Virus record (IMG/VR): IMGVR_UViG_3300026078_000018
Length of the DNA: 64,000 nt
Reading direction: 5' to 3' (one strand)
DNA from: a virus
Below the pieces are notes generated by a model that ran no database searches, was not told where the DNA came from, and saw nothing but the letters and a program-made list of their open reading frames with translations. Position 1 is the first letter of the stretch. Each line of letters begins with the position of its first letter. The position numbers and the translations under genes were made by a program. This document shows positions 3,396-47,977 of this stretch, piece after piece.

Positions 3396-3424
3396 ACCAT
3401 ACCATCGGACCATACTATGGTCCA
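3396..3424 (-). promoter_or_regulatory. sigma70-type promoter overlapping a 21-bp palindromic operator
   Basis: Minus strand TGGACC-N17-TATGGT; operator ACCATAG-N7-CGATGGT. Confidence 0.7.
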
Positions 3425-3723
3425 TCACCTTTTTGTCGCGCGCAAGGCCCAGTGGGGCCGTGACCGGGCATGATACGAGGCTGTGCATCATCAACACGGG
3501 TGCTCCCGTGGGCAAGGCGCGCGTCAGCGCGCAAGGTCGCGTGGCTCCCGGGCACGCCCGGGGTGTTCGAGGGTGTCGGCTGCGGAACCACACGCTGGCG
3601 TGCGCGGGAACCGGGGCTTCGAGACCTAGAGCCTAGACCTTCTGCCCCGCGCTGGTCACAGGATCCTGTGACGCACACTCGCGAACACGAGTTCGGGATA
3701 ACCCGATGCAGAAAAGTTACCCC

Positions 3724-3882: not shown

Positions 3883-4524
3883 ATGCCCGCGATGCCGCGT
3901 ACCCAGAAACAGCCACGAATCCCCGCCCAGAGGCACCCCGAAAACAAGCCCCTGATCCCGCCGGAAGACGCCCAGAGACTGATCGCTGCTGCCCAAGACG
4001 GCGACCGGGAGGCCTTCGGCGAGCTCTACCGCGTCTACCGTGACAGGGTCTTCCGGTACATCTACTACCGCGTGTCCACCCGGGCCCTGGCCGAGGACCT
4101 CACCAGCGAAACCTTCATCCGGGCGCTGCGCCACATCACCACCTTCTCCTGGCAGGGCTGCGATTTCGTGGCATGGCTGTTCACCATCAGCCGCAACCTG
4201 GTGGCCGACTACTTCAAGTCCTCCCGGCACCGCATGGAGGTCTCCACCGGCGAGATGCTCGACTCCGACGAGGTCGAGGCCTCCCCGGAGGAGTCGGTGC
4301 TGGAGCACCTGTCCAACGAGGCCCTGCTGAACGCCGTCCACCGGCTCACCGACGGGCAGCGGGAGTGCATAAAGCTCCGGTTCCTGGAGCAGCTCACCGT
4401 GGCTGAGACGGCACGCGTCATGGACCTGTCCGAAGGCGCCGTCAAAACCCTCCAGTACCGCGCCGTCAGAACCCTGGGACGTGCCCTGAAAAAGGACGAC
4501 TTCGACATGGCCCTGGCCGCCTGA
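3883..4524 (+). CDS. bldN: ECF sigma factor, sigma-BldN/AdsA homologue
   Basis: RYIYYRV..AEDLTSETF.RALR.I.TF.WQG.DF.AWL.TI.RNLVAD.FKSSR.R.EV.TGEMLD and KTLQYRAVRTL match my recollection of Streptomyces BldN; start chosen from a GAAGGA RBS, an upstream start is possible. Confidence 0.85.
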   Translation: MPAMPRTQKQPRIPAQRHPENKPLIPPEDAQRLIAAAQDGDREAFGELYRVYRDRVFRYIYYRVSTRALAEDLTSETFIRALRHITTFSWQGCDFVAWLFTISRNLVADYFKSSRHRMEVSTGEMLDSDEVEASPEESVLEHLSNEALLNAVHRLTDGQRECIKLRFLEQLTVAETARVMDLSEGAVKTLQYRAVRTLGRALKKDDFDMALAA

Positions 4525-6464: not shown

Positions 6465-7358
6465 ATGGGGGATGATGTGACAGTGAGTTTCGAGTCGTTC
6501 GCGATCAAGCGTGACCTCGGTGCGTCGTTGAAGGCTGCACGGCTGGCTATGAAACCGACACTGTCGACGACGCGCGCAGCGGCCGCCCTCGGGATCAGCC
6601 AGGCCTCGGTGTCACGGATCGAGAACGGGAAGCAGCTCGTCAACAAGGATCAGCTGTGCCAGATGGCCAACGTCTACAAGGTGAGGACCGGCCAGCTGTC
6701 GCAGTGGCTCCGGATGCTGACCCAGGTGAACGCTCCCGACCAGTGGTGGCACGAGGAGCCCTACCGGAAGTGTTTGACCAAGCGGTACGCCGAGCTCATC
6801 GGGGTTGAGGATGCAGCTGAAGCACTGATGCTGCTGCAGCTCCAGGTGGTTCCTGGACTGCTACAGACGGCGGAGTACACCAGGGCTCTCCTGGAGGGAA
6901 GCCCGATCAGGTTGAGCGCAGAGGAGATCGACTCTCTGATCGAGGTCCGGCAGGTCAGACAGCAACGGCTCAGCTTGGACGCTGTACGCCCGCTGCAGGC
7001 GACGTTCATCCTGTCTCAAGCCGTCCTCGAAATGCGCTACAGCAGCGAGGAGGTTCACCGGGCGCAGATGCGGCAGCTCGACCTCAGGGCCAAGCAGGAC
7101 AACATCACGATCGTAATCCTTCCTTTCGATCGAATGATCGATCTAAATTCAGTGGATTTGTACGACTTGCCCGGTGGCGCAGACCCCGTTGTGTTCACCG
7201 AGCCGTTGATGACGAGTCAGATGGTGCAGACTATCGATGACGTCGAAAAGGTCAGAGGCATCATGTTGAAAGCTCAACAGCGTGCTCTTTCACCTGCTCA
7301 ATCGCAAACAGCTATTAGACAAAGAATGGATGGATCACATTATGCTCGACAGCAATGA
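6465..7358 (+). CDS. XRE-family HTH regulator with DUF5753 domain (Scr1-like)
   Basis: LGASLKAAR...ISQASVSRIENG; VVPGLLQTAEY; R..RQ..L. Confidence 0.9.
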   Translation: MGDDVTVSFESFAIKRDLGASLKAARLAMKPTLSTTRAAAALGISQASVSRIENGKQLVNKDQLCQMANVYKVRTGQLSQWLRMLTQVNAPDQWWHEEPYRKCLTKRYAELIGVEDAAEALMLLQLQVVPGLLQTAEYTRALLEGSPIRLSAEEIDSLIEVRQVRQQRLSLDAVRPLQATFILSQAVLEMRYSSEEVHRAQMRQLDLRAKQDNITIVILPFDRMIDLNSVDLYDLPGGADPVVFTEPLMTSQMVQTIDDVEKVRGIMLKAQQRALSPAQSQTAIRQRMDGSHYARQQ

Positions 7359-7560
7359 CACCTCCTCCGGACAGCTGAAGTGGCGCACGTCCTCATACAG
7401 CCAAGGTCAAAACAACTGCGTCGAGGTGGCTTTCAGCGCCCCCGGCGAAGAGGTGTGGGTGCGCCACAGCAAGAACCCCGACGGCGGGGTTCTGCAGTTC
7501 ACCTCGGACGAGTGGAAAGCGTTCATCGCGGGCGCCCGTGACGGCGAGTTCGGGGCGTAG
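7342..7560 (+). CDS. DUF397 protein (Scr2-like)
   Basis: WRTSSYS..NNCVEVA...VRHSKNP...L.F...EW.AF. Confidence 0.9.
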   Translation: MLDSNDTSSGQLKWRTSSYSQGQNNCVEVAFSAPGEEVWVRHSKNPDGGVLQFTSDEWKAFIAGARDGEFGA

Positions 7561-8619: not shown

Positions 8620-8931
8620 ATGCAGCACCCGGACCTGAAGCAGATCCGCCGCTGGATCGACGGCGAGGACCCGGCCCCGGCGTTGAACGAGCTCTACAGG
8701 ATCGGCGAGGAGATCGGCAGGCGCCGCAAGGCCCTGCGCAAGCAGGCCGACGACGAGGGCAAGCGGATGAAGGCCATGGTGGAGCTGCTGTGGCGGCAGG
8801 GCATGGACAACCTGGCCGAGATCCAGCGGGTACTAGACGTCACCTACACCACCGTCGACAAGGAACTCACCGCCAAGGGGCTGGGGCCGCAGCGGCGCCC
8901 GAAGCGCGGAGAGACGACAACCGGCGACTGA
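8620..8931 (+). CDS. small HTH-like protein
   Basis: GGAGG RBS; LAEIQRVLDVTYTTV.KEL HTH-like; TATAGT upstream. Confidence 0.65.
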   Translation: MQHPDLKQIRRWIDGEDPAPALNELYRIGEEIGRRRKALRKQADDEGKRMKAMVELLWRQGMDNLAEIQRVLDVTYTTVDKELTAKGLGPQRRPKRGETTTGD

Positions 8932-8933
8932 CT

Positions 8934-8964
8934 CCTGTCCGGGCACCAACAGCTCCTGAGGAAG
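8934..8964 (+). promoter_or_regulatory. candidate late promoter CCTGT-N23-AAG
   Basis: Same motif recurs before several structural genes. Confidence 0.55.
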
Positions 8965-18409: not shown

Positions 18410-19180
18410 ATGAGCCTGTTGTGGATTGAAGCGGTGCAGCTGAGTCCGCGCGCGGGTTCCTTGTCTGCGTGGGACAAGGAGACTCACCCGTTCGTACACC
18501 AGGAGCACATGCTCCCCGAAGATCAGCTGTCGCAGGCCACTGAGCATCTCTGGCCGCTGCTTCGACCGGGCACGGAGACCTGGGAGCGGGTACATCGGTT
18601 GAAAGAGTCGATGACCGCCCACGGCGGATACTCCCCCGAGCGCCACGGCGAGCTGCATCTGCTGCGCAATGAGCCGAATCTGCGGCTGCACGCCGAACAC
18701 CCGGACTGGCCGAAGACGGGTGCCGGGAACCACGGAGACCATGTCGTGATGGCCCTGAACCTCAGTGGACACACGCGCCACGTTCCTGTCACGGTCCATG
18801 ACGCGAACGATCCAGGTCGCCCTCGTTACTATCACGGCACGTCAAGGGAACTCCCCGAGGGCGAACTGCTGTATTCGAACGGCCCTCGCCCCGGCTGGCC
18901 CAGCTCTCCCGAGCACACCTACGCCACGACCAGCCGCGACGGAGCGGAGCGATATGCCGACGCCGCACACGACACCTTCGGCGGCCGTCCCCGCGTCTAT
19001 GAGGTCCACCCGATGGACCCGTCCGATCTGGAGGCAGACGACAGCGAAGGCGGTGGGGTCGACTCACTGCGCAGCCGTGCCGGGTGGGAGATCGGCCATG
19101 AGGTGTGTAAGCCGCGCAGGCTGCACGACTTCCTCAACGGCGAAGAAGAGGACGACGAGGACGATGAGGGCTGGGACTGA
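18410..19180 (+). CDS. leader + ParB-like domain + Arr-type ADP-ribosyltransferase
   Basis: YYHGTSRELPEGELL...HTYAT...A..YA...GRPRVYEVHP...EADD...SLRS...EV; N-terminal LKESM..HG...GNH...A....G...VPVTV. Confidence 0.78.
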   Translation: MSLLWIEAVQLSPRAGSLSAWDKETHPFVHQEHMLPEDQLSQATEHLWPLLRPGTETWERVHRLKESMTAHGGYSPERHGELHLLRNEPNLRLHAEHPDWPKTGAGNHGDHVVMALNLSGHTRHVPVTVHDANDPGRPRYYHGTSRELPEGELLYSNGPRPGWPSSPEHTYATTSRDGAERYADAAHDTFGGRPRVYEVHPMDPSDLEADDSEGGGVDSLRSRAGWEIGHEVCKPRRLHDFLNGEEEDDEDDEGWD

Positions 19181-29404: not shown

Positions 29405-29436
29405 GGAGGGGAACTTTGATCCGCGCCGGAGTGGCG

Positions 29437-29661
29437 ATGACGTCGCCCCAGAATCCAAACCGCCTAGGTGTCAAACGTGTGTTCATCAGGTCGATCGACA
29501 CGGCATCCGACACGATCTACGCGACCGACCTCAACGGTGCCGAGATCCAGCTGCCGTGGCGCATCCGCCGCGTCGGGATCATCCCAGCTGTCGGCGACAC
29601 GTGGCTGGCCGATACGGCACTGGGCTTCTGGTCGCTGGCTGCGTACGTCGTTCCCGAATAA
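29437..29661 (+). CDS. small OB-fold baseplate spike-like protein
   Basis: IP.VGD.W motif typical of gpV N-termini; alternative TTG start at 29416. Confidence 0.6.
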   Translation: MTSPQNPNRLGVKRVFIRSIDTASDTIYATDLNGAEIQLPWRIRRVGIIPAVGDTWLADTALGFWSLAAYVVPE

Positions 29662-29676
29662 TGATCTTTCCGGCTA

Positions 29677-29860
29677 GTACGATTGTGAACCAGCACCACC
29701 GGATGATGACGTGTCCGGGCCTGACGGGAGTCCACGGCTCCCGGGGCATCTATCCCAGCAATCCACCGATCACGAGCCTGGGCAACGTCGAGTGGCTCAC
29801 TCAACCTCCGAGCGCGACCGGGTAATGAACGGCCCGGTCACACCTTCTTCCTCTGTCAGA
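29677..29860 (+). ncRNA. putative structured ncRNA, copy 1
   Basis: Tandem paralogue with compensatory stem changes; TACGAT -10-like box; strand inferred. Confidence 0.65.
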
Positions 29861-29863
29861 CTT

Positions 29864-30030
29864 GTACGATTACAGCCAGCACGACCGGATGATGACGTGT
29901 CCGGGCCCGGCGGGAGATCGTCACTCCCGAGGCGATACCTCAGTACCGTGGGCAACGTCGCGTGGCCCTCAATCCTAGGGGCGCGGCCGAGTAATGAACG
30001 GCTCGGCCACATCCTCCTTCTCGTGTCAGA
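29864..30030 (+). ncRNA. putative structured ncRNA, copy 2
   Basis: As copy 1. Confidence 0.65.
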
Positions 30031-30066
30031 GAGGGCGCCTCCGCGCGGAATGCGCGAGGAGGCCCC

Positions 30067-30495
30067 ATGCACACCCTGGCACTGGCAGGCGGTGACCTGA
30101 TCGCCACCGCGGCCGGATACGTCGTCATCGACGGCGCCGCGATGGTCCGGCAGAACCTGGCCTGCGCACTGGCCGAGCCGATCGGCACCGACCGATTCCA
30201 CCCCACCTTCGGCTCGACGCTGTCGCAGCAGATCGGCACGCCGATGACAGACACCGAAATCGCCGGAGTCCGAACCGAAGCCGTCCGGGTGGTACAGGCA
30301 CTCATCGCAGCACAAGGCGCGATGATCGCCGCAGACGCCGCTGCTGGTGCGCGCTCCCGGTTCTCCGCCGCTGACGTGATTGCGCAGCTCGTCGGTGTCA
30401 ACGTCACGCAGACCCTCGACACCGCCAGTGTCATGGTGCAGGTGGAGACGGCAGCCGGGGCGACCCTGGGCTCGGCCACGATGGCGGTGGTCTGA
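30067..30495 (+). CDS. baseplate wedge, gp25/GpW-like
   Basis: L.E.IGTDRFHP.FGS.L...IG. Confidence 0.8.
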   Translation: MHTLALAGGDLIATAAGYVVIDGAAMVRQNLACALAEPIGTDRFHPTFGSTLSQQIGTPMTDTEIAGVRTEAVRVVQALIAAQGAMIAADAAAGARSRFSAADVIAQLVGVNVTQTLDTASVMVQVETAAGATLGSATMAVV

Positions 30496-45298: not shown

Positions 45299-46111
45299 CT
45301 ACAGCACCGTCAACAACGCCTGCGTCGCCGACGTGCATCCACGCATCGCGTCCCGCGCTTCGTCGGTCAACGCCCGAAGCGGCGACCCCACCGGCAGCCG
45401 CACCATCGTCCACCGCTGGCCCGCCGGATCCGGCAGCACGGCCGCCGGGCGCCCGCTGGCCACCTGCACCTTCAGCTGGTCCAAGACGGGGTCGAGGTAC
45501 GTCTCGGTGAGCAGGTGCGCTTTCGACTCGGGGACGAAGGCCTTGTCGATCGTCAGGAAGGCGCGGACGACTCTGCGGATGAACTCGCTGCGATCCAGAC
45601 CGCAGTCGTCTGCGTCGGCGTCGAACCGAACGCGCTGACTTTCGGTCATGTACGGGCTCAGCATCGTGCGGTGCGCGGACTCGGTGACGACCTCGTCGTA
45701 GATGTCGTCGATGACCGTCGTCGCCAACGGCGTGCTGGGGAGGTCCGCGGCGACGAGCCGGTATTCCCTGGCCGCGGTCATATAGACCTGAGCAAGCGTC
45801 AAGCCGCCGAGAGCAGGCTGCGCCAGTGCGATCAACGGGAGGAGATCCCGATCCATCAGCACCGCGGTGCGCTGCTTCTTGCCCCCTGCGGAGGGGGCAG
45901 CCTTCGCAGGGGGCTTCGGCTTGGGCTTGGGCGCCTTGGCTGCCTGCTGTGACGGGACAGCAGGCTCCGGCGGCTCGGGCTCAGAGGGCGCCGCCGGGGG
46001 AGGTGGGGGCGTCTGTGGCGGGTCTGGGGGCTTGCTGGCAACGGCTGCGCTCGGCGTCCCCATCGCCAGCATCGCGGCGACGGCGTCGCTGACGTCGTTA
46101 GAGTGGCTCAC
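45299..46111 (-). CDS. ParA partner, RHH-type centromere-binding protein
   Basis: Disordered Pro-rich N-terminus; SPYMT......FDADADDCGLDRSEFIRRVV RHH pattern; coupled to parA. Confidence 0.6.
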   Translation of the reverse strand: MSHSNDVSDAVAAMLAMGTPSAAVASKPPDPPQTPPPPPAAPSEPEPPEPAVPSQQAAKAPKPKPKPPAKAAPSAGGKKQRTAVLMDRDLLPLIALAQPALGGLTLAQVYMTAAREYRLVAADLPSTPLATTVIDDIYDEVVTESAHRTMLSPYMTESQRVRFDADADDCGLDRSEFIRRVVRAFLTIDKAFVPESKAHLLTETYLDPVLDQLKVQVASGRPAAVLPDPAGQRWTMVRLPVGSPLRALTDEARDAMRGCTSATQALLTVL

Positions 46112-47151
46112 GCCGTGTTCCTTGCTGCGATTGCGGCGTTCATCCCGGCCAGGGTCTCCCGGGCGAACTCGTCGTAGTCACGCAGGATTGCGTGCTCCTC
46201 CAGCAGTTCCTCGTCGGTTGTACCCAGGGAAGTACTCCTGAGGTACTCGCCGATCGTCACGCCCTTCTCGCGAGCCTTGGCCACGTTGAGCGCCGAGTAG
46301 TGGATCATCGCGTTGAACAGCTTCGGGTAGCCGGGCAGCAGCGCGCGCTCCGAGTCGAACACCTCGTTGTCCAGTATCACTTGGATCTTCTTGGCGATGT
46401 CGACCATCGCCCCTCCGGGCCGGGCGTTGCCGTTGCCGTCCGTCCTGCGCCACGCACGGATCGTGGGGTCGGGAATGCGACCGGCCACGGCGCCGAGGAA
46501 GACGTGCTCGGGATTGCGCTCGCGCGCCTCACCGATCTCCTTGATCAGGATGTTCAGACCGTCCTCGTAGGCCGCGATGTCGTAGTCCATTGGGGCGTAG
46601 GAGAACGCCGCCGCCTCCAGCACCATGAGACGAACGGTCTTGATCTTCGGGTCGTTGTCCACCAGCGTCATGTGGTAGTCGCCGGAGACGGTCGCGATCA
46701 CCTGTCCCAGAACGTGGGTGTAGGGGCGCTTCTGCAGGACCGAGACCGCGCTCATCCCGTCGATGGCGGCTTCCAGCGCGGTGCCGCCGACGATCACGTC
46801 CACCCGGCCCCCGTTGGGGTAGGACCGCACCCCCTTCACGACGGTGGGGGCCGTCGGCGTCCCAGTCATGAACGTCACCATCAGCGCGTCGGCCAGGGAC
46901 TTGCCCTTGTCATCGTGTTCGGTCTCGTGCAGCCCCAGGTCGCGCCTGCTGGCGATGGCGTGGCTGTCGACGTCGACCACCAGGATGACGAAGCCCATAC
47001 GGGCCAGGGCGTCGGCCAGCGCGGTGATGGTCGCGGTCTTTAGGATGCCACCCTTGCCGGTGACCACGGCGAGGACGCGCGCCAGCAGGGCGCGCTCGGT
47101 CAGCGAGATCCGTGGCGGGGCGTCGGCGGCTTCGAAAGCTGCTGTGGTCAT
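46108..47151 (-). CDS. parA: ParA-family partition ATPase
   Basis: VLAVVTGKGGILKT, LVVDVDSH, LVDNDP. Confidence 0.85.
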   Translation of the reverse strand: MTTAAFEAADAPPRISLTERALLARVLAVVTGKGGILKTATITALADALARMGFVILVVDVDSHAIASRRDLGLHETEHDDKGKSLADALMVTFMTGTPTAPTVVKGVRSYPNGGRVDVIVGGTALEAAIDGMSAVSVLQKRPYTHVLGQVIATVSGDYHMTLVDNDPKIKTVRLMVLEAAAFSYAPMDYDIAAYEDGLNILIKEIGEARERNPEHVFLGAVAGRIPDPTIRAWRRTDGNGNARPGGAMVDIAKKIQVILDNEVFDSERALLPGYPKLFNAMIHYSALNVAKAREKGVTIGEYLRSTSLGTTDEELLEEHAILRDYDEFARETLAGMNAAIAARNTA

Positions 47152-47198
47152 GCGGTTCTCCCTTGCTGGCGGGTCATGGGGGGATGCAGGGCGCTGAG

Positions 47199-47221
47199 GG
47201 CGTATACCGGTGGCATATACC
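47199..47221. promoter_or_regulatory. two 10-bp boxes at 13-bp period upstream of parA
   Basis: GGCGTATACC, GGCATATACC. Confidence 0.7.
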
Positions 47222-47257
47222 TGCGGCGCGTGCCACAGCATAGCGTTTCTGGTACTC

Positions 47258-47313
47258 AAAACACGCGTTTTGAAGAGTAAAAATGGCCGTTTTCGATGTC
47301 GAAAACACGCGTT
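47258..47313. repeat. 12-bp direct repeat AAAACACGCGTT x2
   Basis: At 47258-47269 and 47302-47313. Confidence 0.7.
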
Positions 47314-47560
47314 GGTGCTTGACCGTGCATGCGGCCCATCGATAGCGTGACGGTGCCACGCCTCGGGGACGGCCGTACCGAGCGCGCGACGGCACCCACA
47401 ACGCCCCTCGACCCGGGGGAGGCGACACCGGTTCCGCGAGCGTACCGGCTGCCCACCACCTGCGCTGCAACCTGCACCGAATCCACCCTCGGTGTCTGCG
47501 GCGTCCAGTCGGACCCTGAAGCGTTGCTGACGTGCCACGCGACTAGGACAGGGGACACCC

Positions 47561-47977
47561 ATGATCGAGTTCTACGACGGTCCGGTCCAGACCGCCCCCA
47601 CCACCACCACGGCTACCACCATGACGGTGGTCCCCATCACTACTCAAGCCACTGCGACCCCCATTGTCCCTGCTGCGCATCTGATCAAGCCCGACGAGCA
47701 GTGGACCCCCGAGGATCTGCGCGACTACATCCTCACCGAGATCGTCAAGCGTCAACCCGCCGCCGCGAGCCGTCGTAACCCGGCCGCCGAGATGGCCATC
47801 TGCCGCGCTTTCAGCGAGCGCCACGGCGTCAACGCCCCCCGCATCGCGCGCTACGCCTTCACCATCGCCCAGGGCTGGTGGAACTCCAGCCCCATCGACT
47901 TCCGGCGCTTCTCCAAGGCCTCCGACACCTACTTCGCCAACATCATCATCGGGCGTCTGCCTCAGGCCAGCGCGTGA
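47561..47977 (+). CDS. replication-operon protein (possible initiator)
   Basis: First gene before DnaC/DnaB. Confidence 0.7.
   Translation: MIEFYDGPVQTAPTTTTATTMTVVPITTQATATPIVPAAHLIKPDEQWTPEDLRDYILTEIVKRQPAAASRRNPAAEMAICRAFSERHGVNAPRIARYAFTIAQGWWNSSPIDFRRFSKASDTYFANIIIGRLPQASA

Follow-up and report, generated by a model that had tools for sequence, protein, structure and literature searches.

Two tandem copies of a structured non-coding RNA occupy the 405-nt gap between an 81-aa open reading frame (ORF) and the ORF for a 142-aa gp25-like protein in an uncultured Streptomyces-type myovirus. With five further distinct copies in relatives, they form a small family (n = 7 sequences, from uncultured phages) that is a new RNA motif within phage accessory non-coding RNAs. 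Judged from sequence motifs, the RNA is probably free-standing and made from its own promoter. A role as a protein-binding decoy is proposed tentatively. The stretch of DNA analyzed, referred to as the window, comprises 64 kb of a genome of ~153 kb.

The phage and the locus

The phage encodes a BldN-family sigma factor that scores above the curated cut-off, and a streptomycete is therefore the likely host. Bxz1/E3-like myoviruses are distant kin (~32%), and the Streptomyces plasmid pRLB1-9.1 is closer (47%). No relative of the phage was found in 401 genomes from one actinomycete family, probably not Streptomycetaceae. A ParA-like gene (46108-47562, - strand) is consistent with a prophage that exists in plasmid-like form, as pRLB1-9.1 does. 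Also present in the window are an Xre-family regulator with, directly after it, a short ORF like the Streptomyces DUF397 partner, the latter recognized by eye (6465-7560), and a gene beside the tail genes with a weak match to Arr-type ADP-ribosyltransferases (18410-19180; E = 8e-4).

Neither the gp25-like protein nor the upstream 81-aa ORF, with or without the C-terminal extension seen in some relatives, had a Pfam match. This extension of 160 aa is found in L015 (130-861), L017 (9211-9942), and L035 (126-857), without regard to the presence of the RNA (L numbers designate loci of relatives).

The original prediction had described two units built from shared sequence blocks, and both units and blocks are present where it placed them. 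The units start 186 nt apart, are 72% identical over 189 nt (E = 5e-20), and have a 20-mer in common (2 occurrences versus 0.05 expected). Divergence on this scale excludes an assembly artefact as the source of the pair. Instead of arising by simple duplication, the units may have been captured as separate alleles.

Table 1. Features of the RNA locus and associated genes in the window
Feature	Position	Strand	Remarks
BldN-family ECF sigma factor of the phage	3883-4524	+	TIGR02952, 211 bits (cut-off, 206)
Upstream 81-aa core ORF	29416-29661	+	243 aa in several relatives
Unit 1 promoter candidate	29657-29685	+	Degenerate ECF-type AATAAT-N17-CGATTG over TACGAT (29678-29683); predicted transcription
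RNA unit 1	29692-29853	+	CM, 148 bits; predicted 5' end ~29692
Unit 1 P1 (CCGG/CCGG)	29699-29718	+	Invariant 12-nt loop L1 at 29703-29714
Unit 1 P2 hairpin	29719-29747	+	2-nt bulge
Unit 1 P3 (CCCAG/CUGGG)	29754-29782	+	Variable 19-nt loop
Unit 1 putative pseudoknot 3' strand ACGUCG	29785-29790	+	Partner UGACGU of L1; invariant, without double change
Unit 1 P4	29795-29813	+	Variable C-rich loop
Unit 1 P5	29816-29839	+	Invariant loop AAUGAACG
Presumed remnant TGTCAGA	29854-29860	+	Apparent copy of gp25 promoter upstream box; unit 1/unit 2 junction
Unit 2 -10-like box (TACGAT / CGATTA)	29865-29872	+	-35 match absent
RNA unit 2	29878-30019	+	CM, 148 bits
Unit 2 P1	29885-29904	+	
Unit 2 P2	29905-29933	+	
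Unit 2 P3	29939-29952	+	6-nt loop
Unit 2 putative pseudoknot strand	29955-29960	+	
Unit 2 P4	29965-29982	+	
Unit 2 P5	29985-30008	+	
Terminal hairpin CCUUCUC/GAGAGGG	30016-30035	+	Terminator-like; arms changed yet paired in L014 and L034
Phage promoter motif TGTC-N21-AAT for gp25-baseplate genes	30024-30051	+	Outside the RNA motif
gp25-like 142-aa baseplate gene	30067-30495	+	Named by position and length; followed by baseplate J

Distribution of the RNA among related phages

The orthologous site was reached via 12 homologues of the gp25-like protein. One copy of the RNA was found in each of L014, L034, L035, L024, and L052, in every case at this same site, and a covariance model (CM) trained on six copies recovered the most divergent one, that of L052, at E = 1e-9. 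In P0003, a 235-nt gap at the site probably holds one unit. The RNA is missing from the site in six relatives: in L017/18, L019, L022, L038, and L056 the gap is only 56 to 85 nt, and L023 has a 197-nt insert unrelated to the RNA. The L023 insert (8700-8890), rich in hairpins and without a match to the CM, is possibly another RNA cargo. At the same site, pRLB1-9.1 carries a parAB-like pair (ParA-containing). Lying immediately 5' of the gp25 promoter, the insertion site is a hot spot for cargo. L024 has a convergent ORF between the RNA and gp25; it encodes a hydrophobic protein of 93 aa (3396-3677, - strand) without an NCBIfam match, and its stop codon abuts the 3' end of the RNA.

In a tree of gp25 plus J, every carrier falls in one clade of eight loci (support, 100/99), two of which are without the RNA, a pattern compatible with one gain plus losses or relocation. 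The nearest protein relative of the window is L034 (support only 88/87), yet the RNAs of the window are just 70 to 72% identical to that of L034, which suggests allele exchange or faster change. The L014 and L034 RNAs are 90% identical.

No further copy was located outside this clade. Pattern scans of IMG/VR, JGI metagenomes, and GTDB gave chance matches only, as did blastn against phage and plasmid collections, where the matches were short. CM searches yielded no additional copies elsewhere in the window or in the complete relatives, no credible copy in ten IMG/VR relatives (five complete) plus pRLB1-9.1, where the top score of 17.5 bits lay inside a tape-measure ORF, and no copy in 151 Actinomycetes genomes (20 candidates scored in each), which may not include the host; both CMs were built on an older fold of the middle domain, which may have lowered their sensitivity. 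Nor did an exact two-block pattern reveal a host counterpart in GTDB.

It is extremely unlikely that the units lack a function as RNA and are a DNA-level element or what is left of a small mobile element. Patchy presence, the tandem arrangement, and unremarkable whole-unit folding z-scores (-0.9 and -1.1) would suit such a relic; against it, the RNA has no other copies in the window or the complete relatives, resides at one fixed site, and has dedicated promoter motifs and strand-asymmetric wobbles. Inspection for a MITE or insertion sequence remnant found neither terminal inverted repeats nor a target-site duplication.

Sequence conservation and coding potential

Across all seven copies, 38 nt of the RNA are invariant, and four-fold silent sites of gp25 are 49 to 71% identical between carriers. 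By this comparison, the RNA is under strong purifying selection within a small phage clade. The original prediction that reading frames are not conserved was borne out, and a conserved peptide on either strand was rejected, as the spacings between conserved blocks differ modulo 3. Strand-asymmetric G-U wobbles favour an RNA read from the + strand.

The variable segments have a composition of their own (C, 36 to 54%; G, 7 to 22%), and the variable loops of L014 and L034 are 81 to 88% identical, compared with 64% at silent sites. These properties, C-richness with few G residues and loops more alike than silent sites, could be those of a base-pairing small RNA whose single-stranded P3 and P4 loops recognize mRNAs of the host or the phage, perhaps around their ribosome-binding sites, and two alleles could serve two target sets. 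However, matches within the window do not exceed 13 nt and none of the best comes from the P3 loop; loop lengths vary from 6 to 19 nt; and the predicted invariant pseudoknot core exceeds what pairing small RNAs usually need. A base-pairing RNA thus seems unlikely.

Predicted fold

The only fold open to all seven members in our modeling is a 5' hairpin with a pseudoknotted 12-nt loop plus four further hairpins. The invariant loop L1, closed by P1 (CCGG/CCGG), reads AUGAUGACGUGU. In L052, insertions on both flanks lengthen P1 while the loop stays exact, and the strand needed for an alternative long rod is absent. UGACGU of L1 can pair with a downstream ACGUCG (ACGUUC in L052), which would give an H-type pseudoknot in seven of seven members; its third loop would consist of hairpins P2 and P3 with a GAAAY-type linker between them. 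We infer this pseudoknot from modeling: covariation cannot prove it because it is invariant, and double changes number zero in P1 and in the pseudoknot helix alike.

Covariation was seen in the other helices. Pairing extends to 93.7% of cells in the CM-fitted alignment, and eight pairs have double changes, two of them in P4 and three in P5. Of 500 shuffles, 0 to 1 reached four of the five covariation measures, a result inflated by kinship and fitting. P3 (CCCAG/CUGGG, CUCA/UGGG, CCCG/CGGG, GCCC/GGGC, and AUCAG/CUGAU in different members) is paired in all seven (28/28; 12 of 5,040 arm permutations), with the register picked after seeing the data; P5 is paired 56/56 (48 of 5,040). These data support the predicted family of conserved, structured phage non-coding RNAs. 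Two of the compensatory stems first proposed from the units alone, GACCGGG/CCCGGTC versus GGCCGAG/CTCGGCC (P5) and GCTC/GAGC versus GCCC/GGGC (P4), hold across the seven homologues, and the AUGA(A)CG noted in two hairpin loops is shared by both invariant loops. Other elements had to be revised. A GGGG/TCCC versus GAGG/CCTC hairpin is favoured by unit 2 alone and belongs to a competing fold, P2a plus P3 being better supported. In the proposed pairing of UGACGU-GUCC with GGGC-A-ACGUCG, the UGACGU:ACGUCG part is possible in all members and the GYCC:GGGC part was replaced; an earlier middle-domain model that combined GYCC:distal GGGC with a GGG/CCC hairpin was dropped after comparison of folds. 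Nested folding prefers the rod, with P1 disrupted, in four of seven members. The 5' domain thus appears in these models to have two competing folds, and a switch is possible.

The conserved scaffold, a P3 loop of 17 to 19 nt in five of the seven members, and allele differences among close phages could point to a guide or scaffold RNA in which the P3 loop is programmable; the RNA-guided protein that uses it would be encoded elsewhere, and the ~90 kb of the genome beyond the window leave room for it. However, the P3 loops are visibly homologous (CACYGAUC-like core in common) rather than independently acquired, and that of unit 2 is only 6 nt long. Matches of loops to targets were not above chance in the window or in phage and plasmid collections, and no recombinase (IS110/Nop), Tas, TnpB, IscB, reverse transcriptase, or Cas protein, such as would accompany a bridge RNA, TIGR, omegaRNA, or retron, was recognized among the ~45 window ORFs scanned. 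The guide reading of the original prediction gained no support, since the loops are homologous and drifting and neither target nor effector was found within 64 kb; we regard it as very unlikely.

Transcription signals

Promoter motifs of several types precede the RNA. In L014 and L034, a perfect CGTAAC-N17-CGATGA ends 10 nt before ACCGG; these two sites, directly before the RNA, are the only mismatch-free matches to CGTAAC-N16/17-CGWTGA in the scanned loci, and the window has none. The BldN consensus is similar to that of ShbA. The ShbA consensus has identical hexamers but a spacer of 16 (PMC12019637) versus 17 in L014 and L034. The BldN-family sigma factor of the phage is a candidate reader of these promoters. 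As read from their sequence, the two promoters in the window are decayed forms of the same motif; the -10-like TACGAT box predicted for each unit was found in both, that of unit 2 lacking a -35 element, and the TAA stop codon of the 81-aa ORF coincides with the -35 position of the unit 1 promoter. L052 has TACACT (TANNNT type) as far from the RNA as TACGAT, and L024 has a phage TGTC-N21/22-AAG motif (TGTC..AAAG) at a matching distance before it; no clear promoter motif was found in L035. The different motifs all imply a 5' end 5 to 8 nt before P1, as would be expected if the RNA were an accessory gene standing on its own.

TGTCAGA, originally listed among the shared RNA blocks, does not belong to the RNA: the TGTC at 30024 is the promoter box of gp25 and is also present in relatives without the RNA. 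Seven of 11 + strand occurrences of TGTC-N21/22-AAG lie 30 to 80 nt before gene starts (P = 2e-8). With AAG or AAT, the motif occurs on the + strand of the window at 8936, 16471, 18368, 19852, 22867, 30024, 47493, 51244, 57807, and 63824, and it precedes structural and replication genes. The motif is sometimes 3 to 4 nt from the start codon, with AAG as close as 4 nt, and such genes are probably leaderless.

At its 3' end, the L052 RNA has a 10-bp GC terminator-like hairpin. The CU-rich tail described for both units is present in unit 2, where it can be understood more precisely as pairing with GAGAGGG just downstream. Stand-alone gene features (promoter and terminator motifs) are clear in L014, L034, L024, and L052 and degenerate in the window. 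Independent transcription thus gained in silico support for the family, from promoter motifs of different types whose distance to the RNA is constant and from the terminator-like hairpin of one member. The case is weaker for unit 2, which has only the -10 box and may share a transcript with unit 1.

In read-through RNA, the Shine-Dalgarno (SD) region of gp25 is more paired at RNA-adjacent loci (unpaired, 0.10 to 0.36) than at others (unpaired, 0.30 to 0.57), the loci being related and not independent. In the window, read-through RNA has a hairpin (30036-30066) that covers the ribosome-binding site of gp25; RNA from the local promoter is less affected, and the hairpin is possibly a form of insulation. 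The more paired SD region and the two competing folds of the 5' domain could indicate a cis-acting element of the late operon, whether riboswitch-like, an antiterminator, or a translational control of the gp25-baseplate genes. However, the RNA is absent from the site in six relatives, the promoter motif of gp25 itself sits downstream of the RNA, a convergent ORF (L024) or a terminator-like hairpin (L052) parts the two, and SD masking is better read as insulation from read-through. Cis action is therefore highly improbable.

Comparison with known RNAs

As originally stated, the RNA matches no known family: Rfam 15 gave no match at the gathering score. For three stretches (window, L035, and L052), the best Rfam E-values were 2.9 to 9, with no family common to members. 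Searches of Rfam and of the literature turned up no Streptomyces phage RNA that matches this one and nothing that describes it. Individual candidates also failed. Rfam sR28 scored 8 to 12 bits against a cut-off of 39; tRNA or tmRNA was rejected with no ARAGORN call and no T-loop GUUCRA; neither pairing with rRNA nor resemblance to it exceeded the level seen in shuffles; and resemblances to the hairpin ribozyme, T-box, k-turn, and type I-E handle failed by eye or by motif. AUGAUGA equals the box C consensus of archaeal box C/D small RNAs and k-turns, and box D is not conserved here: unit 2, L035, and L024 lack CUGA, and its positions in the other members are scattered.

Small ribozymes are common in phages, and a new catalytic RNA, whether self-cleaving or of another kind, built on a pseudoknotted core deserves consideration, given that invariant unpaired nucleotides surround the helical junction and that AUGAUGA plus GAAAY is reminiscent of a hammerhead core. 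Compared with hammerheads, including non-circular permutations (PMC10085705), UGAUGA is present in seven of seven members and GAAA between two stems in four, being replaced by AUCUAU in unit 1, GAUAC in unit 2, and GAACUC in L052. In contrast to hammerheads, position 3 is A, P1 interrupts block C, and the 10.1-11.1 pair is missing. All permutations were rejected: CUGANGA occurs in no member on the + strand, with one isolated - strand match in L052 only. There is no Rfam ribozyme match, and a fixed 5' end under differing promoters better fits a stand-alone RNA. The ribozyme reading of the original prediction is thus weakened by the failure of the hammerhead in motif tests, and catalysis seems quite unlikely. 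Taken as one proposal, a new class that is either a ribozyme with a pseudoknotted four-helix core or an RNA-guided scaffold, in which the 17- to 19-nt P3 loop would set specificity and tandem copies would provide two specificities, is improbable.

The closest known systems are RNAs that bind proteins. Pseudo-ToxI of phage PhiTE, a type III antitoxin mimic (PMC3475682), is likewise a phage non-coding RNA; it has an H-type pseudoknot of the kind predicted here and undergoes tandem increases in copy number and allele exchange by recombination. Unlike the 36-nt repeats of pseudo-ToxI, the units here are ~150 nt and multi-domain, are 72% identical with separate promoter boxes, and have no cognate host antitoxin that could be found. 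A type III or AbiF toxin-antitoxin locus was rejected, the gene directly downstream being the gp25-like baseplate gene and not a toxin, as were type III antitoxin repeats of 34 to 57 nt, the repeat unit here being 186 nt and single in five relatives. The AbiF antitoxin RCd22 (RF03085; bioRxiv 10.1101/2025.04.15.648962) resembles the RNA in size, in its two related loop motifs, and in its terminator, and it inspired the idea of a dimeric protein bound at two sites; in contrast, the RNA here has another sequence, a predicted pseudoknot, no RF03085 match, and no adjacent toxin gene.

Proposed function

The RNA probably acts in trans, to judge from its predicted fixed 5' end under varied promoters, its terminator-like end, its dispensability, and its separation from gp25 in L024 and L052. 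Conservation is concentrated in the two AUGA(A)CG loops and the putative pseudoknot and the other loops drift, so recognition of shape fits better than guiding. The octamer AUGAACGG in the P5 loop is one base off a type I-E 5' handle. Racr (PMC10651486) and vsgRNA (bioRxiv 10.64898/2026.06.01.729453) are phage-encoded stand-alone RNAs that sequester host proteins; unlike these, the RNA has no repeat hairpin directly 5' of the octamer, no repeat:anti-repeat duplex, and no 5' guide, and a Racr-type mimic of a type I-E repeat was rejected with the octamer in the P5 loop.

By analogy with pseudo-ToxI (PMC3475682), RCd22, and the Racrs, we tentatively favour a protein-binding decoy or modulator RNA, a possible role in which the protein partner and the counter-defence function are guesses. 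Each unit would be a stand-alone accessory RNA gene of ~140 to 165 nt, inserted upstream of the gp25 promoter, driven by its own promoter, and ending at a terminator-like hairpin. At the core of the folded RNA would be an H-type pseudoknot, formed by P1 and L1:ACGUCG and bearing P2-P3, with P4 and P5 following. A protein, possibly dimeric, would dock on the two invariant loops, each with AUGA(A)CG. The partner, for example a host defence nuclease or regulator, would be titrated or inhibited, and the phage may keep two diverged alleles for dose or breadth. Phages with RNA decoys, and the expansion of such decoys, have been described before (PMC3475682; PMC10651486). Searches of the 64-kb window, of GTDB by pattern, and of 151 Actinomycetes genomes returned no partner protein, host counterpart, or target; the lack of a host model counts against the decoy, because a mimic should have one.

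Orphan RNA motifs turn up in large numbers. The fold of this one is unlisted, and natural alleles are ready for testing. If the RNA is a decoy, capturing its partner would bring to light a streptomycete protein of defence or regulation that depends on RNA. The phage-encoded BldN sigma factor and the BldN/ShbA-type promoter of two relatives could tie a phage RNA to the developmental programme of the host.
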